Source of the DNA: Squalus acanthias
Taxonomy: Eukaryota
DNA: 64,000 bases
Direction of reading: 5' to 3'
NCBI GenBank assembly: GCA_030390025.1
Contig: CM059429.1
Span: forward strand, 18,104,001-18,168,000
The notes below the pieces were generated by a model. That model was not told the origin of the DNA and did no database searches. It saw nothing but the letters and a program-made list of their open reading frames with translations. Below, piece after piece: positions 6,170 to 60,208 of the stretch (position 1 is its first letter; every line of letters begins with the position of its first letter). Position numbers and translations under genes: made by a program.

Positions 6170-7331
6170 ATGAGCATGGATGCTTTGGGGAGTCCGATGA
6201 TGGACCCATCATTCGCCAAAAGAAACCCAGCGCTGAGATTAGTAGATTTGGCAGGAGCTCACCACCATCATCATCACCATCCCCCTCAGAGTATGACAGG
6301 CTTCCCGGGGCTCAGCGGCCATCCCCACTCAATGGCACACACGCACCCTGGGGAGAGTACTGGAGAACCCCGCCTGGGGCCGAGTCCATTCGGGCCTGAA
6401 CACATGGGGCACCCTGCAGCCGCTGCTGCGCTTAAACTCAGCCCAACCCATCCCCACCACCATCACCACCATCATCATCACCATCATATGGCAGGCCACG
6501 CTGAGGTTGTCTCCAATCCAACGGCAGCTTTTGGCCCAGCGCAGGCAGCAGCAGCAGTCAGTTACTCGGTCTCGCACTCCCACGCCAGCTATACTGCCCA
6601 GGCTATCTCGGCAGGTAGAGACTTCCTCATCCGCAGAGATCTGACATCCTCAGTCATGCCTGGGCTCACTGATCAATATCCTGGCACAAGTTCTCACCAC
6701 GGAATGTTTGTATCAACAACAGGTAGCTACCCCGGACACCATGGTCACCCCGAGGCTGGAAGCCACTCTTTATTCCCTGGACTCCATGATCAGGCTCCCC
6801 ATGCAGCCCCAACTGGACACCATCTGAACGGACAGTTAAGACTGGGGCTACCTGGAGACATGTACGCCAGGTCTGAGCACTACAGCCAAGTGGCAAGTTC
6901 CAGGAGTGATCCCTTTGCCTCTTCCCCTCTACATGGCTACGGTGGCATGAATATTAACATGAACTTAACTGCCCACCACGGTCCAGGTGCATTCTTTCGC
7001 TACATGAGACAACCCATCAAGCAGGAACTGATCTGCAAGTGGACTGAACCGGACCCTGTCACTAAAAAGCCATGCTCAAAAACTTTTAGCACGATGCACG
7101 AACTGGTTACTCACGTAACAGTGGAACACGTTGGGGGACCAGAGCAGTCGAATCATATCTGCTTCTGGGAAGAGTGTCCAAGAGAGGGAAAGGCTTTCAA
7201 AGCCAAATATAAACTTGTAAATCACATCAGAGTCCACACTGGCGAGAAACCATTCCCCTGTCCATTCCCTGGCTGCGGCAAAGTCTTTGCCAGATCAGAA
7301 AATCTCAAGATCCACAAAAGAACTCACACAG
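6170..7331 (+). CDS. zic4: Zic4 zinc-finger transcription factor, first coding exon (poly-His tracts, ZOC-like motif, ZF-NC region, ZF1-ZF3)
   Basis: ATG at 6170. The N-terminus [37 protein letters not shown] is typical of fish Zic4. [14 protein letters not shown] is the Zic ZF-NC motif and is followed by Zic fingers up to KIHKRTHT. A phase-1 donor ACAG|GTCAGT lies at 7331/7332, the conserved Zic intron position between ZF3 and ZF4. Confidence 0.96.
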
Positions 7332-10478: not shown

Positions 10479-10915
10479 GAGAAAAACCCTTCAAATGCGA
10501 GTTTGAAGGCTGTGACAGACGTTTTGCTAACAGCAGCGACAGGAAAAAGCACTCTCATGTGCATACAAGTGACAAGCCCTATAACTGCAAAATAAGAGGC
10601 TGTGATAAATCGTACACGCACCCCAGTTCCCTTCGTAAGCACATGAAGGTCCACTGCAAATCTCCTCCTCCCAGCTCGGGCTACGAATCCTCCACCCCTT
10701 CGCTGGTATCTCCTTCTTCGGACTCAGGCCGGGACCCCCCGGCTTCAGCCTCCCAGCTTGACCCCATCACATCTTCCCACGCAGCTAACCTGAGCGAATG
10801 GTATGTGTGTCAAAGCACAGGAGCAAGTGGTATTCCAACACCTCCAAGCAATTCTTCATCACCTGGACCAGGAGAGCACGCTTACAGAAACTCTGACCCC
10901 AGAACTATTCACTAA
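10479..10915 (+). CDS. zic4: Zic4 second coding exon (ZF4, ZF5, C-terminus; long unspliced-tail form)
   Basis: Acceptor ttttcttttAG|GA at 10477-10478 restores HT-G-EKPF. The exon encodes [32 protein letters not shown]...[28 protein letters not shown], and SPPPSSGY is Zic4-diagnostic. Stop TAA at 10913-10915. Joined CDS is 1599 nt = 532 aa. Confidence 0.95.
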
Positions 10916-12350
10916 CCAGGAACCTAAGGCCACTTGGACATGCATCCACAATAAGAAATATTGACTAAGTCTTTGTTCCTATGATGTTTGCAATGCCATA
11001 CTCTCTGCAGCATTTGACTTGAGGAACTACTTGAGTTTCTGGAGGCCGAGCGCCTAGGAAACGTGAAAAATGATGTAATGCACTGGCATACAAAAAAGAT
11101 AAAGACATGTATTAAAGAGAAAGTATCCCTAATTGTAATCTTACACAAGTTGCAGTTAATAGTCAAGAACTACGCATCTTGAACAACACAGCATCACTTA
11201 CAAATGCTCCCCACCATATAGTATTGTTTTCATAAAATGTTGTATAAAGAAAATCGTTGTTCGATTTATCGTTATTATTTTTCTCTCTTGTGGAAAAAAA
11301 TACACTGCTATATCGATTTGTTAAGAAAGTATGTTGCATTTCTTTTTGAAAGCCAGAAGGGTGTTAGAAGATATTCTGTACACCTGATGTGAATAGTAAT
11401 GAACAAAGGCCTTTGTAGGCCGAAACAAAATGGATACTGTCTCTTTAAAAGCCTGCCTAGCCTTTGACTTTGTTTAAACATTTCTGCAAACTACATTTTC
11501 GTGTTAGACATTTTTGCAGAATAAGCCTGTAAAAACATATAAATATTGGTATTGACATATACAGCGTACGTCTGTGTTAAGTATTTCGTTTCTTTTTCTG
11601 TTTTGTTTTCCTTGAAATAATTTATTTAAAATGTTACAATAAAACACATTTTGTATAAATGAACCAAAGTGTTTTATTACAGGGCGATTAGACAGTGTAC
11701 ATTTTTTTCTTAGATTATTTTAAATAATTAGCGTGTGTTCTGTAAATTATAGTGTTTTATAAATGGAGGTTTGACTATGTAGGATCATTTTCTTTCTGTA
11801 TTTTTGATCCTGTTTTGATATACATGGGTACTGGTTTGTAATAAATTGATAATAATAGAAATACTGTTTAAAAACTTTTAGAAATGGACCCATTTGTTGT
11901 TAATATGTATAGTAAAGCATTGGTTCTGTCTTATCTCTGTGACATATATATTTAACCACCACTAAAGAGCAAGCTCTAACTCATTGACTTGGTCTAATTT
12001 TTTTTGTAGTCAGGAGCAACACACATTTTAGTACTTTTGTTTTACGCTACAAGCACGATTTTTTTTAAAAAGCGCATTCTCGTTAAAATGTAACATCGGC
12101 GAAGCACATTTTTTTTGTGGAACCCTTAAAAATAGTTGGTGAAAAAGTTGTAAGACCGAGGTATTGTTACGGTGAAATCCTACTGTTTAAGCAGAAATCG
12201 TTGGAATGTGTACTGAAACCACTTTGTATTTTGCCAATGTACGAATGAACTGTGCATAGTTTATAATTGTATTGTCAAAAACTCACAAGTAAATGCGTCT
12301 TGTAAAAAAATAAATTTTGTAAAATAAAATAAAAAATGGTTGTTTGTTAC
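10916..12350 (+). other. zic4: zic4 3' UTR of the long-tail isoform with several poly(A) signals
   Basis: AU-rich sequence after the stop. AATAAA at 11638, 11840, 12309, 12323 and 12328. The last cluster is followed by a GT-rich tract (tggttgtttgtt). Confidence 0.6.
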
Positions 12351-13592
12351 ACTTTACAATGAAAAGATAACATCACGCAGATGCCTACTACATATTATAC
12401 ATATAGATGATAGTAGATAGAGAGATAGATACATACAGACAGACATAGGTAGATACATAGGTAGTTGGTTGATACACGGACAATATATATATCACATTTA
12501 AATTCTTTTGATTAAAACATCGCACAAAACATTTAATCAACACAAAAAATTGATAAACCACGACTGTGCACAAATTAATTTTGTATCAGTTTAATGCAAA
12601 TATCCCCTTATGTTATACTTGATGGCTCAAAGATCTATATTTCACAAAAATAGTTATCCTTTGGGGATCCCATGAACTGGAAAATAAACTTTTTTTTACT
12701 CAAATGCAAGTAACGATTTATAATTGAAATATGAACTCTCTCTCTTTCTTTCTCTCGCCATTCCTCACACACACACAAAGACTTAACGAGGGAGTTTAAG
12801 GTTTGTCATAAGCAGTTCTCGAAGACTAGTCGTTTTCTCTTCAGGTTTTTCTGCTATGGGGCCTAGCAAATGGGGATATAACGTGTTGCACAGTAAGGGG
12901 ACTAGGTTGCTATGCAAGATAAATAAAATGGGGTTAATATATTCGTTTCTCCCTCAGAGAAAGCCTAATCTACTATATATTCCAGTAAAGTCGGGACAGC
13001 TGTGAAAAGATATTAATAATCCAATCATCTTTTCCTCAGTTTGCTCTGTTGCACCGCCAGTGACTAAGGCTGTCTGACTTCCTTCACAGCTTATTAAATA
13101 CGTTAGTTTGCTCTCATTCCTTAATTATGTTTTCCCCGAGATCTGGCGCAGAAACCATTGCAGGCCAAAAATAAAAGTAACCATGAAAAGAAAATTAAAA
13201 TAGAGGACAGACATCTTCAGAAAGACGTGGCATCCATTTCTTACATTAACCAAATTCACGTGAAAGACATGGAGAGCAACCGAAAGTTTTTTCGATGAAC
13301 AGTTGAGCCAGAAGTTGAGACAACGGAAGAATAATACTAAAGTCCATAAAAGTTGAGTAATAGTATGGATAGTAATGTTTTTATTTAGTATAATCTACTT
13401 TAGATCAGATTATATTGGCGTGTGATATATTCGCTAGAAAGCGATAAAACTAATGACATGGACTTTTGGGCAATTTCTCAAAGTTTTGGAGTCGCAGATG
13501 GTACAAAAAAGTAATTTTATACCCAAGTTTATAAATTGAATTCATTACGATGGGTAGTTCTTCACCTTTAATTTTTCATTTACTTGTTGCAG

Positions 13593-13716
13593 ATGTCCAC
13601 CCAGTTGCTATAGGTAATCCAGGCAGCCGCAACTCAAAAGCCTGAATATCCTCGTGGAGACATCAAAGCAGAAAAATCTACAAAGAAGTATTTCTTCGCA
13701 ACGGTGAATCTTCATG
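13593..13716 (+). other. zic4: Candidate downstream zic4 exon (alternative terminal exon or cassette)
   Basis: Acceptor ttttcatttacttgttgcAG at 13591-13592 and a consensus donor ATG|GTGAGT at 13716/13717. The first base A completes TGA with the TG preceding the donor at 10801. AATAAA at 13970 if used as a terminal exon. Confidence 0.6.
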
Positions 13717-16700
13717 GTGAGTTAGGATTTCTATGGCAATAGACAAGTCATACTTAAATACTGAAAGCCAAGTCTGGAGCTAGTCCAGTCTTTTCATTAA
13801 GGGCGGAATGTTTACGTCTTAAGAACCATATGTAAGCAAGTTTGTGTGTGTATCTATATGTGTGGGGATATATATATATATATATTTGTTTTACGCTGTT
13901 CAGCTCATTGTTATTTAACTTTAAACCGCAAAGAAAGCCTCACGTGAAGCATGACTTGTACCAAATTCAAATAAAACGTCAAATATAACCCCCAACCTCC
14001 TCCCAAAAAGAAAGAGAGGGCTTGAGTTAGAATGTCAATTAACTTGTTATTTCCCGTTTCTATCTGATATAGTTAATCGGGGAGCGAGTTAAACTTTCTG
14101 TAAACTTTTAAAAGGACTAGGAGATTTTTTTCTCCAAAGAACGAGAGAGAAAATAAAAGACACAAGGACTCTAATCAGACTCGGGCTGTTCAAAGAGCCG
14201 GGTTTTAGAATTCCAAAGTGTGAGTTTTATGGTACATCAGCACCGCACGCTAGGATCGCTATGGTAATGAACGGAGCAATGGCAAACTGCCTTCAAAGGA
14301 GGCACACTCGATTCGAGACACTCTATTAAGATACATTTGCGTTGACCTTTGGTTTCATGCTAGGTTAGTACAGTCAATCTTCACTTCATCATAATCTTTA
14401 ATATTTTGGGGTTGGGACGAATTCTCAGGCGGATTAGGGACGGCCTGAATCGAGCTGGCTTGGCTCCTCGGAGAGGGAGCCCAGCGGGTTCGATCTGGGA
14501 CCTGTGAGCAGATAAGTTGGGGATTCGTCTTTTAGTAATTGTCTTGTTGTTTATTTTATACAAGTACCCAGTGAATGGCGAAAAATAAACACGGTGAAAA
14601 ATAACCAAACAGTCGAGTCCTCTTTAGTGAAAACCCTTGTGGCTGAATAAAAAGGATGGTACAATCTCTATTCAGGGCAGAAGTCTTTGAAGTGGGAGTT
14701 ATTATCTAAGGGATTCTTCCTCGTCGTCTTAACGACGCTGATGAAACGGAAAGCGTTCTTTGTCAGCGATTTGTTCTCCTCTCTGTCAAGCGTTTTCTGT
14801 CCGTTAGTTCTGAACCGTTTCTAAAGAGATAAAAGATGGAAAGACTTGTATTACTACCTTGAGCAGACAGGACAGTGTTAGAACTGTTGCTACATTTTAG
14901 ATTGAACGACAATTGTGCTGATGTTTCTGGCGTACCTGTTCAAATCCATGATCAAACATTAGTGCAGTCCGGAAACTTCAAAATGTATATAACTGTTAGA
15001 ATAACTATTCTAGAAACAGAGCGATGACATAAAGGGTTACTATCTTTGAGTGATGTGAAAAGAGTAATTATTTATGATTTTTCCTGCCGTTTAAGCATGC
15101 ATAAAATGAAAACTTCCTGCATTGAAATCGACCCTCTTATTTTCTTGCAACAGTGTAATATCAACGTTGAGAAACATTCTTTAACAAATCTCGGGTTTTG
15201 TATTTCAAACTCCTGCACGGTCGCCATTTTGTTCAATGCAATTTACTCCAGAATTGTATTAAGCTTTAGTTGCAGTAATCTCTATTACTCCGAGGCATTA
15301 CATTTGCTCTTCTCGTTTTAGTTCCTTTCCTTCCTCTCAATTCTATTAGCAAAGTCGGTTTCTACCATTTTGTCTTCCAGTTCCTTTTTTAAGTTTTAAA
15401 TTGGAGACTGAAAAAAACTTTATTGAACAAAGTGTATTAAAAGTAAATCCAGTCGGCGCAATAACATGGCTTGCGTTGGATATGAAATAAATTAACTCAT
15501 TACACGTCATCCATTTAGTTTACAACTCATTTACAGAATCATTTTGCACAGAGGAGTAAAATCAGCACAATAAATACGGATTTCTTTTCCCTTGCTGTTT
15601 ACTATCCCTGAACGGATTTAGGGCCGAGTTCTCCTGGGTAAATGCACCCCCCCCCCCCCCCCCCCCCGCTCTGCAATCGCTTGTAATGTCTGCATCTTTT
15701 GTTTGCTGTTCACTTTTTGATTATGTAGGTTTTTTTTTCCAAGAACACGGCAAATCGGCACTATACAAGAAGTGCTGGGCATTAGATTGCGCCTGACACC
15801 ACTAAAAAGGAATCTGTTAAAAAGCATTCAACCTGAAACAGATTCTTTCAGCCGTTTTTTTCACAAAACCTTGTTTAACAATATAAGCTAGTTTTAATTA
15901 AACTATTCATAGCTCTATCCCTGTCGCCTTTAAAACTGGCCACAATTCCGTCCTGTTAGTTTCCATGTTAAAGTCCACGCTAGGTTAGACCTAAAGAAAC
16001 AATGGGCATCTAACTTTTAATCATGAATTCTTTCGGGTGGGATTATTATAGCATCGCGTCGCAAATCAATCGTTTCCAAATTTGTGTAAATTGTCAGTGA
16101 AATAAGTTAGCAGCTTACTTCTTTCGTAAATAGCTGCTTCTCGACGTGACAGACAAGTTGCAATTTGCAGGAAAGCAATTTTCTAATGAATTCATTACCA
16201 TGATTACAGAATTTCGTCCAGTATAACCCTCCCCCAAGTCCTGGAAGCATTTTCTTATTTTGCATGGACGTTTGGGGGCCTTAAATTGAAACCTGGGTCT
16301 CAGACAAATAATTCATTATTGTCAATCAAGTCGGAAGGAATTATTGGCAGCTGCATTAAGTACATTGTGGTTCTTAATAAAATATCATAATGGATACAGA
16401 AAATCACATCGAATTGCTGTCAAAAGTGCGAGATATTTATTTTAATCGACAGCCTTACACACTCTTGCTGCATACTGATGACTCTTAAGGTCAGCAAGTT
16501 TTTACAATAGTTACTCAGACAGAGTTTGCTGACAGCAAGTATCTTAATGTAGATGTTAAATGACTGGGGGAGACATTTCCTCGTATAACTATAACTGAAA
16601 CAAAAATTAGGGATTGTATTGCATTATACTATCTTTGTATGAATTGCAACACGTAGCTAACAACTTCAAGATGTAATCTCACTCTATTAAAATATTGTTT

Positions 16701-19700
16701 GATTACATCGTTTAACTCAAATTGTTTTGAGTCATGTGGTATCACGTCGAGTGAGCTGCTTGCCCCAATCAATAAATAGAAAACTAATGGAGCTTTTATA
16801 TGCATATCTTATAAAAGTGTTGCATGCACAAATTTTCTTTTGGCTGGGAACAGTTACACGATAGTGAAATAAATGGCATGTGATGTACCCAGACGCTGGC
16901 AAGGCATTCAGCAACACGATTTTGTTAACAGTCGGTTTTATATCAATCGAATGGTTTTGTCTTGATGGACATATTTTAAAACATAAACGTAGCAGCAACG
17001 ACTAAACAAGTAAAACCATTTTAGTTCACCTGAGCTCCCCGTTTAACATAAAAATCACAGCCCAGCTCTGTAACTCCGTTAAAACACGTCGGAATCTAAA
17101 GTTACACGCATGCGCTCTGTTTTACGATATGGTTGATGGTGAAGTGAGCAAGCAATTTTTCCGGTGACTTAACAATTTTTGTGTCGTCTCTAATTTATGA
17201 ACCTTTAAGGACCATATGGATTCTTAAGTTATCAAAACGGTGAAAATCGAAATCTAATCCCACATTCGCTATATGTTCACACACTTGCTTACTTTGAAAT
17301 TTGTCCAAAATGGTGGCCAGAAAAAATGAAGAGGTGACAACACTTACTAATTAATCCACACGGTGAAAGGCTATAATGCTTGACTGAGGATATGCAGTTA
17401 TTACACTTGACTATAGTCAACAAGAGATGGAAAGGCACGTTGGACAACATGGTGAGAGACGTGTGGCCATCATTAGTGGTTCTTTTATTGACACTGGCTT
17501 TTCTTTCTCATCATTGACAAACCATTTTGGAGGGATTCATCCCCTGTTGCTTCCTATCATCCACCCCATCCAAGCTTCTGGAGAGCATTAATTAACGTCC
17601 ATTCACTGATAAGTCCTGACAACAAAGCAATGCATGTATAAGGACTAGCACCCCGAAACAATACGGAGACCAGAATACAAAACTATGAAGTGGGCAAAAA
17701 GTAATCAACTCATATTTATACCCCGCATCCTGATTTTCTAAGTAATCCTTTTGGTAGTGCAGATTTTCGATTTTGCACGTGAATCCAAAAACACGGTGCC
17801 TTGTTGCCTCGTTTCTAATGACTACTATGCATAAAACGTGACGTCAGAATTTATAAGCTAAACAAAATTTCAGCAACCGATCGGTTAAAGCACAATAACC
17901 GCACACTCGGTAACCTTCTGAGCCAATATCCTTACGATAAGCAGACCGTGCTCTGTCCCCTTCACTGCCCTGCATTTGTACGAATTAGATGAAAGTGATA
18001 TGTGATCGATAATGAATGAGGCATTCTATAAACAGCGATTTTAATTTTACTTTTCCTCCTTAGGTTTCTTAAGCTTTTTTTTTTAGATTGTAACAGCTTC
18101 TTGCGGTGTCGTTATATAACATTTAGTTTGAGGCGTGGATCCGCAGTGTGAACAGTTGAAAAACATCTAATGCTAGATTCACGGACATATCTGGTACAGA
18201 TTTAAAAAAACCTCAACTGTGGCTTAGAATGAATTTCCCAGGGAAAGGCCCACCTCAACTTAAGGCATATAATGTTAATAGAGGAAGAGCCTCTTTGGGA
18301 ATGATAGACATCTATGTCATTTTAGTCAATGCTAGTCTACAGATATCAGATTGCAAGACAAGCAAATTATTGGTCCAACATTTCATGTTCGGTGCGCTCC
18401 AGCTCAACTCTGTTTGATCCTGCCACGTTCATCATCTTATTTTTTTTATCTTCCTTTATATATGGAACAAGATGCGCCTTGCAACTTGGTTAAGAAAAAA
18501 GCCGCCCCAATATAATTTGAGTAATATTGCTTAATAACTCTTGGTTATAGTCAAACTAATAAGAACTAGAAATAACGGAAGATCGCTTCTCAGAAACAAT
18601 ATTTGTCCGAAGCAATCACCCCTGGTAGAGATTCTGACGTCTTCAATGTCACCCACATGACTTGTTAAGACCGTATAGCTTCGGTAAACCTTTGAAGCTG
18701 TGGACCATATGTTGATTTATACAGATCATAATAAACCATGGTAACATCAGATATTATGTGGTGAATGCGGTACCTAAATACGCGAGCTAAAAGCGCGCTA
18801 GCGAGTAAGGACAAAACAAGGCACTGTTTAACTGACTAGTAAACATTGAACTGAGACTCCATAGAATCCAAATGATAGTTAAAATTTATTTACTCTCCCA
18901 AACAGGCAATAAACATTTCAAAATCTTTTAAATAGTTTTTAATTTTACGGCCATTCCAAAAACATAATTAAACACCTGCATCTTAAGACCGCTTTTCAGT
19001 TTTACTTCTATGTAACCTATTTTTATAATAAAGAGGTAAGTCTCAAAGATATCGTGAAATTTACTTTTCTTTTCCTACTTCTGGTGGAATCATTCTTAAG
19101 AAAACGCACCAATAATAGAATGGGCCTTGACATCTGTAAGTCTGTAATCCTGATATTTTTAATATTTGAAGGATTACATTTGCAGTGCATTTAACAAAAT
19201 ATCTAAGCAGTAAAACTCAGTTCTACTCAGTTGATGAACAATAATAATGACATTTTATGTTTTTAGATATTAAAATAAAAAAGGTACGCTGTTAAAATTG
19301 GATAGTTCTCATACAGCTTACATACACTGCCACATACACATTACACGCATATTCTATACATACTGGGATTCCGTGTTACATGATAATAAACATTAAAGCT
19401 AATCTTGTTGGTGTTTACCAGCTGTATCAAGTATAGACCCGATTAGAAGTCACATTTACAGTCCTATTTCTAACAAAACATTGAAACGAACCTTTAAATC
19501 ATGTTCACCGCGACAGATATTTCAGTGGCGCAATTATGAAACGGCACAGTACAATTTAAAATACCCAACATTTCCATTTGGCGTGTGAAACACAGGAAGT
19601 CGAATGAAAACATAGTAAAAATTCTAATAAATCAACCACAAGTAAGGTAGCATTCGCCAAAATGATCTCGACAAATGAATCCAGCGCTGTTTTCTTTTTA

Positions 19701-22692
19701 ACACCTACAAATGTCTTCTGAATTACATTTTCTTTAACTATTGTCAACAAATATTGTGGAAAAGATGTCTGGATAAGCAAATTAGGATAATTGCGGTGGA
19801 GTATTTCTTAAAGGTTCATCCAATGCCACTGATAATTTAACTCAACATTTTTGTTGGTTGGTTTAAGAAAAGGACATTTCTACACTGATACAGATTTTAG
19901 AAAATTACTGTTGTTCTGAAAAACGACATTTAACGTCTTAATACAGATAGACCCAAAATATAGACCTTTAATGTAAAAAAATCCACTGATTACGACTTAG
20001 CTGAAATTATCATCGGTTGTATTATGGTACATGTTTTATAGGTTTTTATTAAATAAATACAATAAAATTATGACCGTCAAATGTTTTGCTCTAGATATAA
20101 TGGTGCAATATAGTTTTTGCAACATGTTAGTTTATAGAAAACTTGGTATGCCCCACAAATATCAAATGACTTTGAAGTCCTTATTCGGGGTATAGAGACA
20201 TAACTGCAATTCAGGTAATGCAAAGGTCGGACGATATACATATGGTGATGTTCATTTTCTAAAGTTGAGATTAATAACGTGTAGTGGTGTTTTCATACGC
20301 CCCAGTATTTCTTATCCCTGCATCTGGTGCTGCTCTACATACATCAATCAAGCGTGCAAACTTCAGCTTTGCAGAAATGACAAATACAGCCAGTCTGGTG
20401 TTTATGCAGCATGTCTTAATCACGAATATATGTCAATATGATTCTTGGTATAATATTACTGCTATGTTATATCTTGTGTGTGTATGGGGGAGTAAAAAAA
20501 AACCCACGTTGCATTCACCGATATTTGCAGGTGTATACTCTGACGTGTATATCGGATGTGTGTGACATTACACGTATATATTTTATATGAAGTATTTGGA
20601 AACAGTCAAAACCATATTATAAATACATATATAATTGTAAATATACCTGCTGTAAGGCAATCAATTGGAGCCTAACTCCATTTTAATAAAATTTGAACGA
20701 GTTACAATATTTTTCTGGACCCGGAATCATATCTGTTGGAAAAGAATTTCAAATGGTTTAATTGTCGTTTTGCCTTTTCCCTTGCTTGCGTTTTTTGGGC
20801 ACAGCAATTGCATTCCGAGAGTTTCAAGCTTACACTTTAGCCTCCATCATATGTGAATTTGGATACACCGATTTATGTATTTTTTTCAATACAAGTTTAT
20901 CAGCATAACATAAGATGATTGGAAAATTGAAGTAATACTGAGTCGTGGGTTCAGTGGCTGAGTAGGAAAGTTCAAATTTATATTTCAATACATGCAGTCA
21001 AATAGTGAAATACCACATTAGAAAAGAAAAAAAAAGCCTGGTTTCTTCATTGCATTTTTAATTACGGCTGCGGGTAAGGAGATTATTGTCATCCTGTGTT
21101 CATAAAAGAATCAAGCTCCCCTTTAGATTTCTAATTTCTGGAAAATAGAGGCTGACCTTTCAGAAGCTGTTATAGAAATACAGAGGTTCATTTGAGTGTG
21201 AAATATCATTTCATTGAAAAATAATGGAGTCGGTAATCCCACTTCCGGAAACTGTCCTGAATTATTTAACAAGACTCCTTTAATAGGGGATTAGTAGGAG
21301 CCTTAGAAAAAAATCTTTGCGTTCTATTCAATGTCTTATTTTATGTTATAATTACTAGATATAAAGATGTACAGATTAGTATGCAGAAATCGTCCTGACA
21401 ACACGCAGGTGCTATTCTAATCATTCAGCTTTCTTAATTAACGAATCATGTAAGAAAATAGAATAATAAAAACATTTCCGTGAAAGCTGAGGAGGTTTTG
21501 TTAGAGACTGTGTGAATGATGCCTTTAACAAGGAGCTGAAGGGTCAGACAGCAATGCACTGACTTACGACCTTTTATGTGGAAACAATCTCCTTTAAGTT
21601 TTAACTTGCAGCTTGTATATTAAGGAGACTCTACTTTTTAGTAAATTGTATCTCTTCTAGATTCAACATAACTTAATCGTCTCAAGTCCGTCGACAAACG
21701 CAAGTTACGTTCTGCTGTCAATGCATTGAAACTAAACAACCCCACTGGGGTGTGTTGCAAGTCGAGATATCTAAAACTGCAGTCTTCAGTATGCATCGCA
21801 CCTCTAGCAAAGTTCAGTATAATTGCCGGAAAATTTTATACATTGCCTTGTCTCATGCTCTCGCTAAAAATATGGACGCCAAACATTCGTATATTAGCCT
21901 TCACTATAAAAGGGAACTGTTAATATTTCCTCTTGACAAGGTTTTGCACGTGACGTGAAATTTTGAGGTGGACACTAGGTATATTTTAGTTATAGTACAG
22001 ATTATATGTACCTGAGATGAATGGAAAATGGGAGAAATAATTGATCACAATGGTTGTTTAAACTCATAACCTTAGCCTTAATAATATATTTATTCCTTTG
22101 TATATTTAGTCTGTTTATTTATTTCATTTTATTTTGGTCTTAGTGTGCAACGATTTTTTTAAATTTAAAAACAAGAACATTTGAAGTTTACTTACATTAC
22201 GTTCAGTCTAGTACTGGTCGTTTTTGGTATTTATTTGCACATATGTGTATATATATATATGATATTTGGATATATATTACATATCTATGTATGTATAATA
22301 GTTTAAATTATAATACAACTTCATTGTGGTACTATTTGAATGATTAATAACATTACCTCAAAAATGCCCCTGAGCAAGCTGTGATCCCTAAATGGTCACA
22401 TGACTCACATACACTCAAGAATGAGAGGATCCATATTTTTCCCAATAATATTGGGACCAATTACAACGAGCAGTTTACTAACTGAAATAACCAGTCGACA
22501 CACGAGTATGCAAGTACAGATCCGATTAAGTAGGATTTATATAATCTCCCTGTTTACTTTTAATTGCTTTTCCCCCCAAACTTGTCGGGCTCCTGCGACC
22601 ACTCATGTGTTTTTATATTCCTTTTTTTTTCATTTGTGCCACTTACCTCGTTCATTCTGACCACTCCCTCCCGTTTCCTTCCTCTTTCTCCA

Positions 22693-40990: not shown

Positions 40991-43900
40991 ACCTCTGTGA
41001 CTTATTTTCACCAAAGCAAAATATTTTCTAACGAAAACCCCGATGCTGTATGTATTTATTTCAAGTGAACATCATACATTTCCCCAAATGCATTAACTCT
41101 TCAAAGCCTAAAAAGGTTTTTATTTTAGTGAAACAATTTGCCACACTTTCCCTTATGTATACACACACACACAGAAAACATTACAGAGCACAAAGCGGCT
41201 AAGTTATGAAAAGGACGCATGAATCATGGCTCCATTTATAGCGCATTCACACAGTCCTGAAAAGATTAATATTCGCTTTAAAAATCACTGACACACTTGA
41301 CCCCGATAAGGTCAGTCGCCAACAAAACTTCAAGTGATTTGGATCAAGACTGAATTGACTTCAATAATTGATTGGAACTTTTTAAAAGACATTCTAACAC
41401 GATGCGTGTCTGTGGTGACCTCTTTAAAAAAAAGGGCCGTGGGGGTGGGGCTGACTTATCTCCAAAAAGTGAGTGAGGAAATGTTAAGATTTATTAGATT
41501 CCGTTACATGAAAGGGTTCTTTTCATTTTGTACCGAGCTCTAGACGCCATTGAAGCATGCCAGGTAGCACATGTGCACACAGAGCCGATTGCTTTTTACT
41601 GTGGATCCGGAGGCTGCGCCCTGTCACCGGGGAGCCCAGCAACAGGGGGAGAAAGCACACCAAACGCCTCAAGGAACTGCAGTGACTTAACCAACTTTCT
41701 CCCCCCCCCCCCCCCCCCCCACTCTTTTTTTATTTTGTATTTTCTGACCTCGGGCAATAAACAATGCTAAGATCCTGTTAATCGATGAAGCAAAGCAGTG
41801 TGTTACAGACTAAACATGCGCTCGCTGCTTTTTTTTAATAGACGCATTTGGGAGAGTTCCATGGCGGGTTGCATCAGAAGTCAGGATTGGAAGTGCACCG
41901 AAGGCGATAAAACGGCCAGTCGTGTTTATTTTGGCGTCCTTAGTGCTTAGTTAAAGTGGGGGATGAAATATCAACAGCTAACTCAAGTATTGTACTTCAG
42001 GAAGGGGCTTTGGACTTTGATGGTGTCCAGTTGGGTGGAGTAACTATCTGGGAAACGTGCCTCTAAAAGCAGCCACTTGTTTTATGGTTATAACTTGAAA
42101 AAATATACTTAGCACCAACTAAAGATATATTGAGTTCCACATTTTCATCACGCAGGGTTGTATGATTTAGTTTCAAATAAACAAACGCAATAAATACACT
42201 CAAATCTCTCGCCACCTTCAGACAGAACCAAGATAACTTCACTGAGACCAACTTTTCAGAAGTTATTTGACTGAAGGAGCATCACATTCAAGATTCGGTG
42301 GCATAAAATATTTGTTGAGGAGAAAGGGAAGGGGAGGGAGGGGGAGGCTCGTTAGCGCCTTGGTTATTTTTCATTGACTGCTTTCCCCCTTTTTAGCTTC
42401 ACAGATCAAAAGGAAGAAAAAAAAAGTTGGCGACCCGAAGATGTACATTGTTAGAATGACAAGCTGACGATCCCCCAGAGAAGCCGCGAGAGAATGCTTC
42501 CTCCATCGGAAGTGGCTGCATAGCAAGCGAAAACTCACTTTTCAAGCTCTTGAAAGTCATTGTCTTTCGGGCTTACCATACAGTAGATTGTCATGGCAAC
42601 GCAACCTGCTGGTGTTACAAAGAGTTTAAAATGTTGAAAGGCAGCTGAACTGACTAGAGTAAAGAGCAACAGAATAAACAGTATTTTGATTCATTTCGAG
42701 GGTTACAAAAAAAAAGCCGGCCATGAATACCGGCATTGTCCATGCTTTTCTAAATCTGATTCACCATATCATAACCCCTAGGAAGAAGAAAACATCAATA
42801 TCGCGAAAGGAAAGAAGATGTTTCTATGGAAAACCTAGGAATTTACTCCATAACAGATCTGGTGAAAAATCAAAGAGATCAAAGCGAACGCTCCTGGGAG
42901 TTAGATGCGGCTCTGAATCAAAGATGTACGAGGTGGACTCCAAAGTGCTTGGCTTCATTTCAAGTCTGAATCCCAATTTCAAGGGAAATGCTGTCGAAAC
43001 TTCACCCCCCCAAATCAGTCAAAACCAACACTTCAGCAGGTGCTGATGAAGGCATAAACATCGCATCAGTCTGGCCAATGTGCATGCATGACATTCAAAT
43101 AACAGTGTTAGAGCCCGTACATTATTACTACTTTGTTCTGCAAATGCATATTAATGAAAAAGAGAAAAAACAAAACAAAACGACACATTCCCCAGACACC
43201 ACTGCAGTTAAAGCATAACAATATAACAGGAGTACTGTACTGTAACTTTAAAAAAGAGTAAGTAACATTCTTATCCTTATCAATTGTAAAAACACGGGAA
43301 TATACAGGATCTATACTTGTTAGTGCAACTGGCGGGATCTATATTTAGCATTCATTATTGTGTATTGCATTCCTAACTGAAACCTTTCCCCAGTGACCAT
43401 TAAAAGTGTTTTCATTTCTAAAAGTTATGCTATTGACACAGAAGCATTGTGCTTTATTGAGTTTGAGCCTGCAGGTCTGGCATATTTGGAAAACTAATCA
43501 AAGGAGTGGATTCTTTTGACATCTGGTACAATCTGGATTTATTTTATATGATATATAAAATGTTTTCCACTATTAATAACTATAAAACAAAAATAAAAGT
43601 GGACGTGATTATTGTCCGGCCAAGTTCAGCTTTTCAATAACTTACGAGGAAAGATAATACCGACAGTATAACACTTTTGAACCTGATCTTACAAAAAATT
43701 GGGAAACAATACAACCAATTACGGTCTGGCTGGAAGGTCCAAAGAGCGTGGAGAGATCCCGAAAGGGGCGGCACTCTGTGTGGTATCTTCTACATGATAC
43801 AGAAAGTTTACCCAAATCAAAAGTTGATAATTTTCATAAAATTCAAGGAAAACGATGAAAAATGCTAGCAGTAATAGTGCAGCAAGGACAACAACAAACG

Positions 43901-59324: not shown

Positions 59325-60208
59325 GGGTAGATTTTTAAGAACATAAAAACATAAGAAATAGGAGCAGGAATAGGTCACTTGGCCCCTCGAGCCTGCTCCG
59401 CCATTCAATAAGATCATGGCTGATCTTGGGCTCAAAGCCACTTCCCTGCCCGCTCCCCATAACCCTTCACTCCCTTATCTTGCAAAAATCTGTCTATCTC
59501 CACCGTAAATGTATTTAATCACCCAGCCTCCACGGCTCTCTGGGGCAGAGAAGTCCACAGATTTAGGACCCTCTGAGAGAAGAAATTCCTCCTCATCTCA
59601 GTTCTAAAAGGGCGACCCTTTATTCTGAAACTATGCCCCCGAGTTCTAGATTTCCCCACGAGGGGAAATATCCTCTCTGCATCCACCTTGTCGAGCCCCC
59701 TCAGTATTTCATATGTTTCAATAAGATCACCTCTCACTCTTCTAAATTCTAATGAGTATAGGCCCAACCTGCTCAACCTTTCTTCATAAGTCAACCCCCT
59801 GATCTCTGGAATTAACCTAGTGAATCGTCTCTGAACTGCCTCCAATGCAAGTATATCGTTCCTTAAATAAGGAGACCAAAACTGTACGCAGTACTCAAGG
59901 TGTGGTCTCACCAATACCCTGTACAGTTGTAGCAAGACTTCCCTGCTTTTATACTCCAACCCCCTTGAAATAAAGGCCAACATTCCATTTGCCTTTTTGA
60001 TTACTTGCTGTACCTGCATGCTAACTTTTTGTGTTTCATGCACAAGGACCCCCAGGTCCCTCTGAACTGTAGCATTGTTGATCAGTCACCCGTGATAGGA
60101 TCCACCCGACTTTCAGTTCCAGTGGAAATGAAATCAGGTGGTTTCTGTGATGGGCGGTCGATCCACAATGCCAGTTTTATGCCCGGGTAACAAGTTGAAA
60201 ATCTACCC
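59325..60208. mobile_element. Palindromic MITE interrupted by the CR1 insertion
   Basis: Left TIR GGGTAGATTTT at 59325-59335 and right TIR AAAATCTACCC at 60198-60208. Hairpin core 60080-60164 is centred on TTCCA-G-TGGAA. The TIR is the same as in the 49152-49403 element. Confidence 0.62.
59337..60076 (-). mobile_element. 5'-truncated CR1 LINE (ORF2 C-terminus, 3' UTR, octamer tail)
   Basis: ORF 60043-59519 has KKANGMLAFISRG, LYRVLVRPHLEYCVQFWSP, YEERL, RRVRGDLIE, RTRGH, FFSQRVLNLW (classic CR1 ORF2). The tail reads TTCTTATG-TTTTTATG-TTCTT. Confidence 0.95.

Follow-up and report, generated by a model that had tools for sequence, protein, structure and literature searches.

With reference to the literature, the closest described arrangement is the composite 3'-terminal exon, exemplified in the accessible part of the source by FLT1 exon 13 (sFlt1), which is conserved from chicken to human (PMC2926593). 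Within the ZIC family, human ZIC3 carries the same splice donor as the one considered here; it is normally inactive, and a variant activates it and leads to a cryptic exon, 3T(170), with the junction-spanning stop W465*, as given in the available portion of that report (PMC11470249). The available text of PMC4564895 states that NEWYV, a motif whose function is not known, is conserved throughout the ZIC family with the exception of ZIC4, that the ZIC1 truncations of craniosynostosis remove terminal residues including NEWYV, and that ZIC1 p.Ala437*, in which the last 11 residues are lost, disrupted 66% of embryos as against 8% for the full-length protein; removal of these residues is described as a gain of function like that of the craniosynostosis mutations. 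The RDFL-(1-2aa)-RR consensus of the ZOC motif had already been extended to Xenopus Zic4 (PMC2988786, in its accessible part), a same-strand non-coding RNA adjoins mouse Zic4 (AK082989; PMC2722021, likewise in part), and table S22 of PMC10807796, which gives no structures, counts 13-17 isoforms of ZIC4 for each cerebellum sample. The accessible portion of PMC11393135 held nothing relevant. Within the coverage of our literature search, outside which the original mouse and Xenopus descriptions of Zic4 lie, no paper describing the ZIC4 splice was found.

Zic4 is a brain-development gene. In this study, a 64-kb window of the Squalus acanthias genome (the whole stretch of DNA analysed) was investigated, and we observed that it holds the chondrichthyan Zic4: the open reading frame of the first coding exon is 96% identical to catshark ZIC4 X1, the closest proteins are ZIC4 proteins, and the gene forms a divergent head-to-head pair with Zic1, a second Zic gene with the tail SSNFNEWYV* being located immediately upstream on the opposite strand. 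The RNA evidence consisted of assembled contigs from 4 runs (X1-X4) out of 24 listed, without tissue labels; these runs are not recorded as RNA and behave as RNA, displaying exon joints and poly(A), and X1 is 99% alike. The features are collected in Table 1, where a slash within letters marks a splice site. The stop codon of the read-through form is found at 10913-10915.

Table 1. Features of the Zic4 locus, numbered from the first letter of the window.
Feature	Positions	Strand	Basis
Zic4 coding exon 1, N-terminus to zinc finger 3	6170..7331	+	open reading frame; catshark identity; loose ends of X1 and X2 contigs lead to 10479
In-frame 108-base exitron with ZOC-like RDFLIRR (predicted in shark)	6615..6722	+	CAG/GTAGAG ... 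ACAG/GTAG
Zic4 last exon, read-through form	10479..12336	+	zinc fingers 4-5, EWYV tail, 3' UTR, poly(A) end
E-W-Y-V codons with latent donor (predicted donor in shark)	10796..10807	+	ATG/GTATGT, GT at 10801-10802
Polyadenylation signal and read-through mRNA end	12309..12336	+	AATAAA at 12309 and 12323; GU-rich stretch behind
Upstream exon of minor spliced RNA beyond the poly(A) site	12615..13351	+	X1 contig 3; 12615 is the contig limit
124-base exon, conserved from shark to mammal	13593..13716	+	acceptor TTGCAG/A; donor CATG/GTGAGT at 13717; exact ends in X1, X3 and X4
Next exon start, 28.7 kb downstream	42397..42420	+	X3 loose end; preceded by pyrimidine tract and TAG

The preliminary description of this DNA had placed a donor at 10801, an acceptor at 13591-13592 followed by A, and a protein ending in ANLSE* that is 38 aa shorter, and both coordinates and translation proved exact. 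GAA occupies 10796-10798, TG 10799-10800, and GTATGT starts from 10801, so that the donor lies inside the Trp codon; the acceptor AG is followed by A at 13593. When 10800 is joined to 13593 in silico, an intron of 2792 bases is removed and TG plus A becomes the stop TGA, giving a product of 494 aa as compared with 532 aa on read-through. All 16 of the 16 synonymous codings of E-W-Y-V spell RTG/GTAYGT; since the W-Y-V codons always spell TG/GTAYGT, a latent donor would be imposed on every Zic gene. An identical donor was found in four other Zic loci of the Squalus genome, with the tails SSNFNEWYV*, VTNLNEWYVC, PPNFNEWYV* and SSNFNEWYV*, which from position and tail are read as probable Zic1, 5, 3 and 2, respectively. 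At a sixth Zic locus (L007, G000:C2186:170041-170274), EWYV codons were not found within the 3.2 kb fetched. This Zic-like exon is 76% identical, shares a contig with a Zic3-like gene about 247 kb away in opposite orientation, and is possibly zic6. By a crude consensus count, 16 of 176 GT sites in 10482-13589 score as high as the donor, and A comes next at 88 of the 244 YAG sites in 10801-20000; as bare shark sequence, the donor and acceptor pattern is no more than chance. Two further observations place it above chance, namely the use of the 13593 acceptor in RNA and the match between the exon and mammalian ZIC4 models.

The 124-base exon is single copy in its own genome and has one other letter out of 124 in each of two relatives. 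Between sharks, other letters amount to 0.8% in the exon against 8.3% in the 3' UTR (Fisher p 0.0009) and 4.5% in the coding part (p 0.08, nominal), and no Rfam family was found in 10400-45000. In line with the similarity to human ZIC4 given in the preliminary description, translations of mammalian gene models, which were compared in three frames in place of exon DNA, match 13593-13716 at both ends. Eleven mammalian models hold DVHRVA...FFATVHLH or its second half, where the shark reads DVHPVA and FFATVNLH; two primate models read KAVFLRHGASSW, for which the shark counterpart is KEVFLRNGESSW*; bird models show MSTPLL and DVYPVA as against MSTQLL and DVHPVA in shark; and the squirrel-monkey model ends in SSW*, like the shark frame. 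In a tblastn search of 373 proteins against the window beyond 11000, proline runs swamped the output and the exon matches, among the matches listed, reached E of about 0.04; hence an anchored three-frame test was conducted with four queries, picked for their resemblance to the exon. With these queries, 13593 ranked first among the 7497 AG positions on both strands of the window, with an anchored score of 74 (next 36; mean -18.9, sd 10.0) and a local score of 109, the best non-overlapping site reaching 65. After LH, all 11 FFATVHLH models continue with a codon starting with G and then diverge, so the exon's own donor appears to be conserved too. For the mammalian continuations beyond this donor, the window, 42397 included, offered no clear counterpart (best scores 35-44). 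On these alignments, the mammalian downstream exon is judged homologous to 13593-13716 at both ends.

In shark RNA, a single X1 contig spans 10477-12336 across 10800 at a depth of 216.7, with 17 loose A letters behind 12336, a position within an A-rich stretch where internal priming is possible, and 10800 is also crossed unbroken by X2 and X4 contigs. Shark RNA thus continues beyond the latent 5' splice site and receives its poly(A) within what would otherwise be intron, one of the properties by which a composite terminal exon is recognized. The proposed check for the 10800-13593 junction gave no support to the earlier claim in sharks: the contigs of the 4 runs read through 10800 and show no such joint, contigs being prone to drop rare joints, so that one present at a few percent would go unnoticed.

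The stretch 13593-13716 was found spliced as an exon in contigs of three of the four runs, namely X1, X3 and X4. X1 contig 3 runs to 13351 and then joins 13593 across a GT..AG intron of 241 bases, X3 joins 13593 from the equivalent place (13291 plus 59 letters) and X4 from about 13412; all three contigs entering the exon therefore come from the 13351-13412 region. The program flagged X4 as probable DNA, but its contig begins and ends at both exon boundaries. The X3 and X4 contigs leave the genome exactly at 13716, and the loose end of X3 behind it matches 42397-42420, directly behind a strong acceptor, with 2 mismatches (0 in 100 shuffles), which gives a GT..AG intron at 13717-42396 of 28680 bases; for one of the two loose-end motifs there was no match within 3 mismatches. 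No long open reading frame crosses the joints of this downstream RNA. The depth of the read-through contig as against the exon contig was 216.7 to 7.89 in X1 (about 27-fold) and 327.8 to 14.3 in X4 (about 23-fold); contig depth is a poor measure, and the exon RNA at about 1/25 of the main form is a crude figure. A further X1 contig over 13959-14252 (depth 4.8) is either an unspliced continuation or DNA. In sharks, 13593-13716 is thus spliced on both sides, as an internal exon, within a minor RNA located past the Zic4 poly(A) site. This RNA is probably non-coding; it may have a promoter of its own and be independent of Zic4, or may represent Zic4 read-through, and it is possibly the counterpart of mouse AK082989. 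The presence of the downstream RNA in X3 without Zic4 mRNA was rejected as a sign of independent expression, as the filter drops conserved contigs and the X3 pieces compared account for part of the X3 word share. The different 3' UTR expected earlier does not take into account that the exon is internal in the shark (13351 to 13593-13716 to 42397). A transcript becomes a target of nonsense-mediated decay when an exon junction follows its stop codon at a distance above 50-55 bases; the predicted TGA stands 123 bases before the 13716-42397 junction, so a shark 10800-13593 product, which the contigs do not hold, would likely be such a target.

For tetrapods, the evidence consists of gene models at annotation level, among which read-through models could represent unspliced pre-mRNA. 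With regard to the junction, human ZIC4 (P0255) ends in ARTADLSE, in agreement with the ADLSE* end given in the preliminary description. Two horseshoe-bat models (P0222, P0236) end in LSE-C-CPPRCSQGSLSPRS, where the shark splice frame reads LSE-*-CPPSCYR; the bat tail, LSE-C-CPPRCSQG, has Cys where the shark frame has the stop, which implies that the first base of the exon changed in the bat lineage. In these models the junction also yields a new 15-residue tail. A frameshifted pangolin model (P0363) ends in PERMMSTALLAR, its stretch PERMMSTALL corresponding to PERMMSTQLL of the shark splice in that frame. At the level of translated models, mammals are thus shown to join the Trp-codon donor to the 124-base exon. 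Both forms were present within one species in 11 exact-prefix pairs of gene models from 8 tetrapod species (painted frog, opossum, fruit bat, two voles, spiny mouse, mouse and rat). Other joints were also noticed: in a squirrel-monkey model (P0267) the exon that encodes zinc finger 3 leads straight into the conserved exon, which a wagtail model (P0017) enters from inside finger 5. On these models the acceptor of the 124-base exon takes several donors.

The distribution of the two C-termini was counted in a protein sample comprising the best 120 of 1727 and the best 120 of 1195 matches plus up to 15 members per cluster, with clades assigned by hand from source names and 11 entries omitted (unnamed or not ZIC4/5). 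Given as models with EWYV / ending at E* / other or partial, the counts were 15/0/1 in chondrichthyans, 51/0/2 in ray-finned fish, 3/0/0 in coelacanth and lungfish, 13/2/1 in amphibians, 13/1/1 in lizards, snakes and turtles, 10/17/33 in birds, 0/5/0 in monotremes, 6/8/1 in marsupials and 47/81/21 in placentals, of which primates contributed 0/18/6; ZIC5, with which P0056 was counted on its tail, gave 21/0/9. EWYV was thus carried by none of the 24 primate entries, and short models are present already in a frog and a caecilian. No LSE-ended model occurred among 72 entries from sharks, ray-finned fish, and coelacanth and lungfish (0/16, 0/53 and 0/3), where fish annotation is thinner than mammalian, and exact look-ups of LSE-ended forms gave 0 of 10 (7 shark, 1 coelacanth, 1 gar, 1 bichir). 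The shark tail after EWYV is paralogous to that of ZIC5 (18 of 35 residues identical); fish, frog, turtle and gecko share 17-24 of the 35, a bird and opossum share 13, and among seven placental models the number is down to 3-15. Since the tail is common with ZIC5, LSE forms are absent from the non-tetrapod models and the mammalian tail has decayed, the read-through form is likely ancestral.

We consider it fairly probable that Zic4 ends in a composite terminal exon whose stop-making splice is used mainly in tetrapods and was built from two older parts, while sharks read through. The default would be that the exon is read through and polyadenylated with the tail kept, as seen in sharks, the donor imposed by the W-Y-V codons staying latent and the 124-base exon, with its good acceptor beyond the Zic4 poly(A) site, belonging in sharks to the minor spliced RNA. 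In tetrapod gene models the donor and this exon are joined, TG plus A making TGA and the protein ending in LSE. Competition between the proximal poly(A) site and splicing would then set the C-terminus, and tetrapods may have moved it towards splicing; bird and mammalian ZIC4 is annotated more often in its short form, and the read-through tail is degenerate in the models, in a presumed order of events. Without WYV, the protein would probably be released from an inhibitory signal at its C-terminus, judging from the paralog, truncated ZIC1. A bolder version, which we hold as a tentative possibility, is that every Zic gene has a self-made donor in the codons of its inhibitory EWYV motif and that Zic4 alone pairs it with an ancient ultraconserved 124-base exon of a downstream non-coding RNA. 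Tetrapods would have captured this lncRNA or poison exon for a split stop codon, giving a natural tail-less and hyperactive ZIC4; together with the ZOC exitron, one gene could then toggle both motifs, and the short form would have become dominant in mammals as the tail decayed.

Counting against an origin in tetrapods, shark and most mammals, the latter as judged from translations, share A as the first base of the exon, which an old stop-making role would fit equally. The switch may thus be ancestral, with sharks also joining 10800 to 13593 in some tissue or stage below contig detection; spliced on to 42397, the product would likely be degraded and the exon would serve as a poison exon controlling the Zic4 level, and ending at a signal near 13970-14152 it would give the short protein. 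In favour of this, the shark has an intact donor, an intact acceptor and the stop-completing A, splicing at 13593 takes place in shark RNA, the exon is more conserved between sharks than the 3' UTR and nominally than the coding part, an X1 contig (13959-14252) lies beyond it, and short models go back to a frog and a caecilian. Set against this, the joint is missing from the 4 runs, the exon is entered solely from the 13351-13412 region, and neither the 72 non-tetrapod models nor the 10 exact look-ups displayed the short form, which leaves an ancestral switch somewhat unlikely. The preliminary claim of a switch conserved from shark to human stands for the homologous exon, for the mammalian models that join the donor and for the pairs in 8 tetrapods; the shark junction, which the contigs lack, is a prediction. 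Zic loci sit amid many conserved non-coding elements, and the element could instead be a DNA enhancer of the Zic1/Zic4 block, with shark splicing as noise and the mammalian junction as opportunistic use of a cryptic acceptor; that the exon-containing RNA is minor, without a long open reading frame across its joints, and that Rfam gave no match agree with this. Against an enhancer speak the precise use of both ends of the exon in three organisms, the mammalian match that begins at the acceptor and stops at the donor (11 of 11 models, then divergence) and the squirrel-monkey SSW* end, which follows the shark frame, and we regard it as improbable. The preferred reading remains a stop-making splice used mainly in tetrapods.

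The predicted exitron of the first coding exon would provide the second toggle. The shark RDFLIRR fits the RDFL-(1-2aa)-RR consensus, and the same 36 aa are absent from X2-type models of coelacanth, gar and opossum. The suggestion that one gene could toggle both motifs was borne out by opossum models, which display all four combinations of exitron and C-terminal splice (602, 566, 519 and 483 aa). Shark X2 models (P0121, P0126) read KNEFLKF-GSYPGHH, which would fit splicing from 6121, where a donor lies ahead of the start codon, to the exitron acceptor at 6723, with the whole N-terminus skipped. Elsewhere in the window, at 59519-60019 on the minus strand, a 166-aa open reading frame was noticed, which we take to resemble the terminal part of a CR1/L2-type LINE reverse transcriptase.

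Taken as annotation and sequence, the anatomy, the conserved exon and the tetrapod isoform pair are real, and shark use of the switch is a prediction. ZIC4 genes have likely kept EWYV in their DNA and lose the motif by splicing, which would explain human ZIC4 without the motif. The natural pair of ZIC4 isoforms makes the role of the EWYV motif testable, and where the 1005-base reference coding sequence has been used to assay human ZIC4 (PMC7403390), it would seem that the tail-less form alone is probed. With the latent donor in ZIC1, 2, 3 and 5, non-coding variants could mimic truncating mutations, as in ZIC3, and the shark locus offers both parts present before, or without, their joining.

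To call this an undescribed system, as was first done, is too strong, since the composite terminal exon is a known arrangement and the short form already serves as reference in human: human ZIC4 (NP_115529.2, ZIC4_HUMAN) ends in ADLSE, the product type predicted for the shark splice, whereas for sharks and bony fish the annotation lists solely the read-through form with EWYV. As far as the accessible part of PMC2926593 goes, FLT1 and ZIC4 are alike in that one exon either runs past its 5' splice site to poly(A) or is spliced downstream, changing the C-terminus and the 3' UTR. In contrast to FLT1, Zic4 yields its longer and ancestral protein by read-through, its donor arises as a by-product of coding for the motif that splicing removes, and the downstream exon supplies the last base of the stop codon alone; the distance from donor to poly(A) is also about 1535 bases in shark Zic4, against a stated median of 238-355. 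In comparison with ZIC1, where the accessible text of PMC4564895 deals with mutations and constructs, the ZIC4 splice keeps N-L-S-E and removes WYV together with the further tail. In ZIC3, on the available portion of PMC11470249, the donor lies at the same motif and the stop spans the junction, and since a variant activates that human donor, the paralogous donor can work in cells. The ZIC3 donor is off in wild-type cells and is triggered by a disease variant, whereas the spliced form of ZIC4 is the human reference protein, and ZIC4, unlike ZIC3, has a dedicated and conserved acceptor exon.
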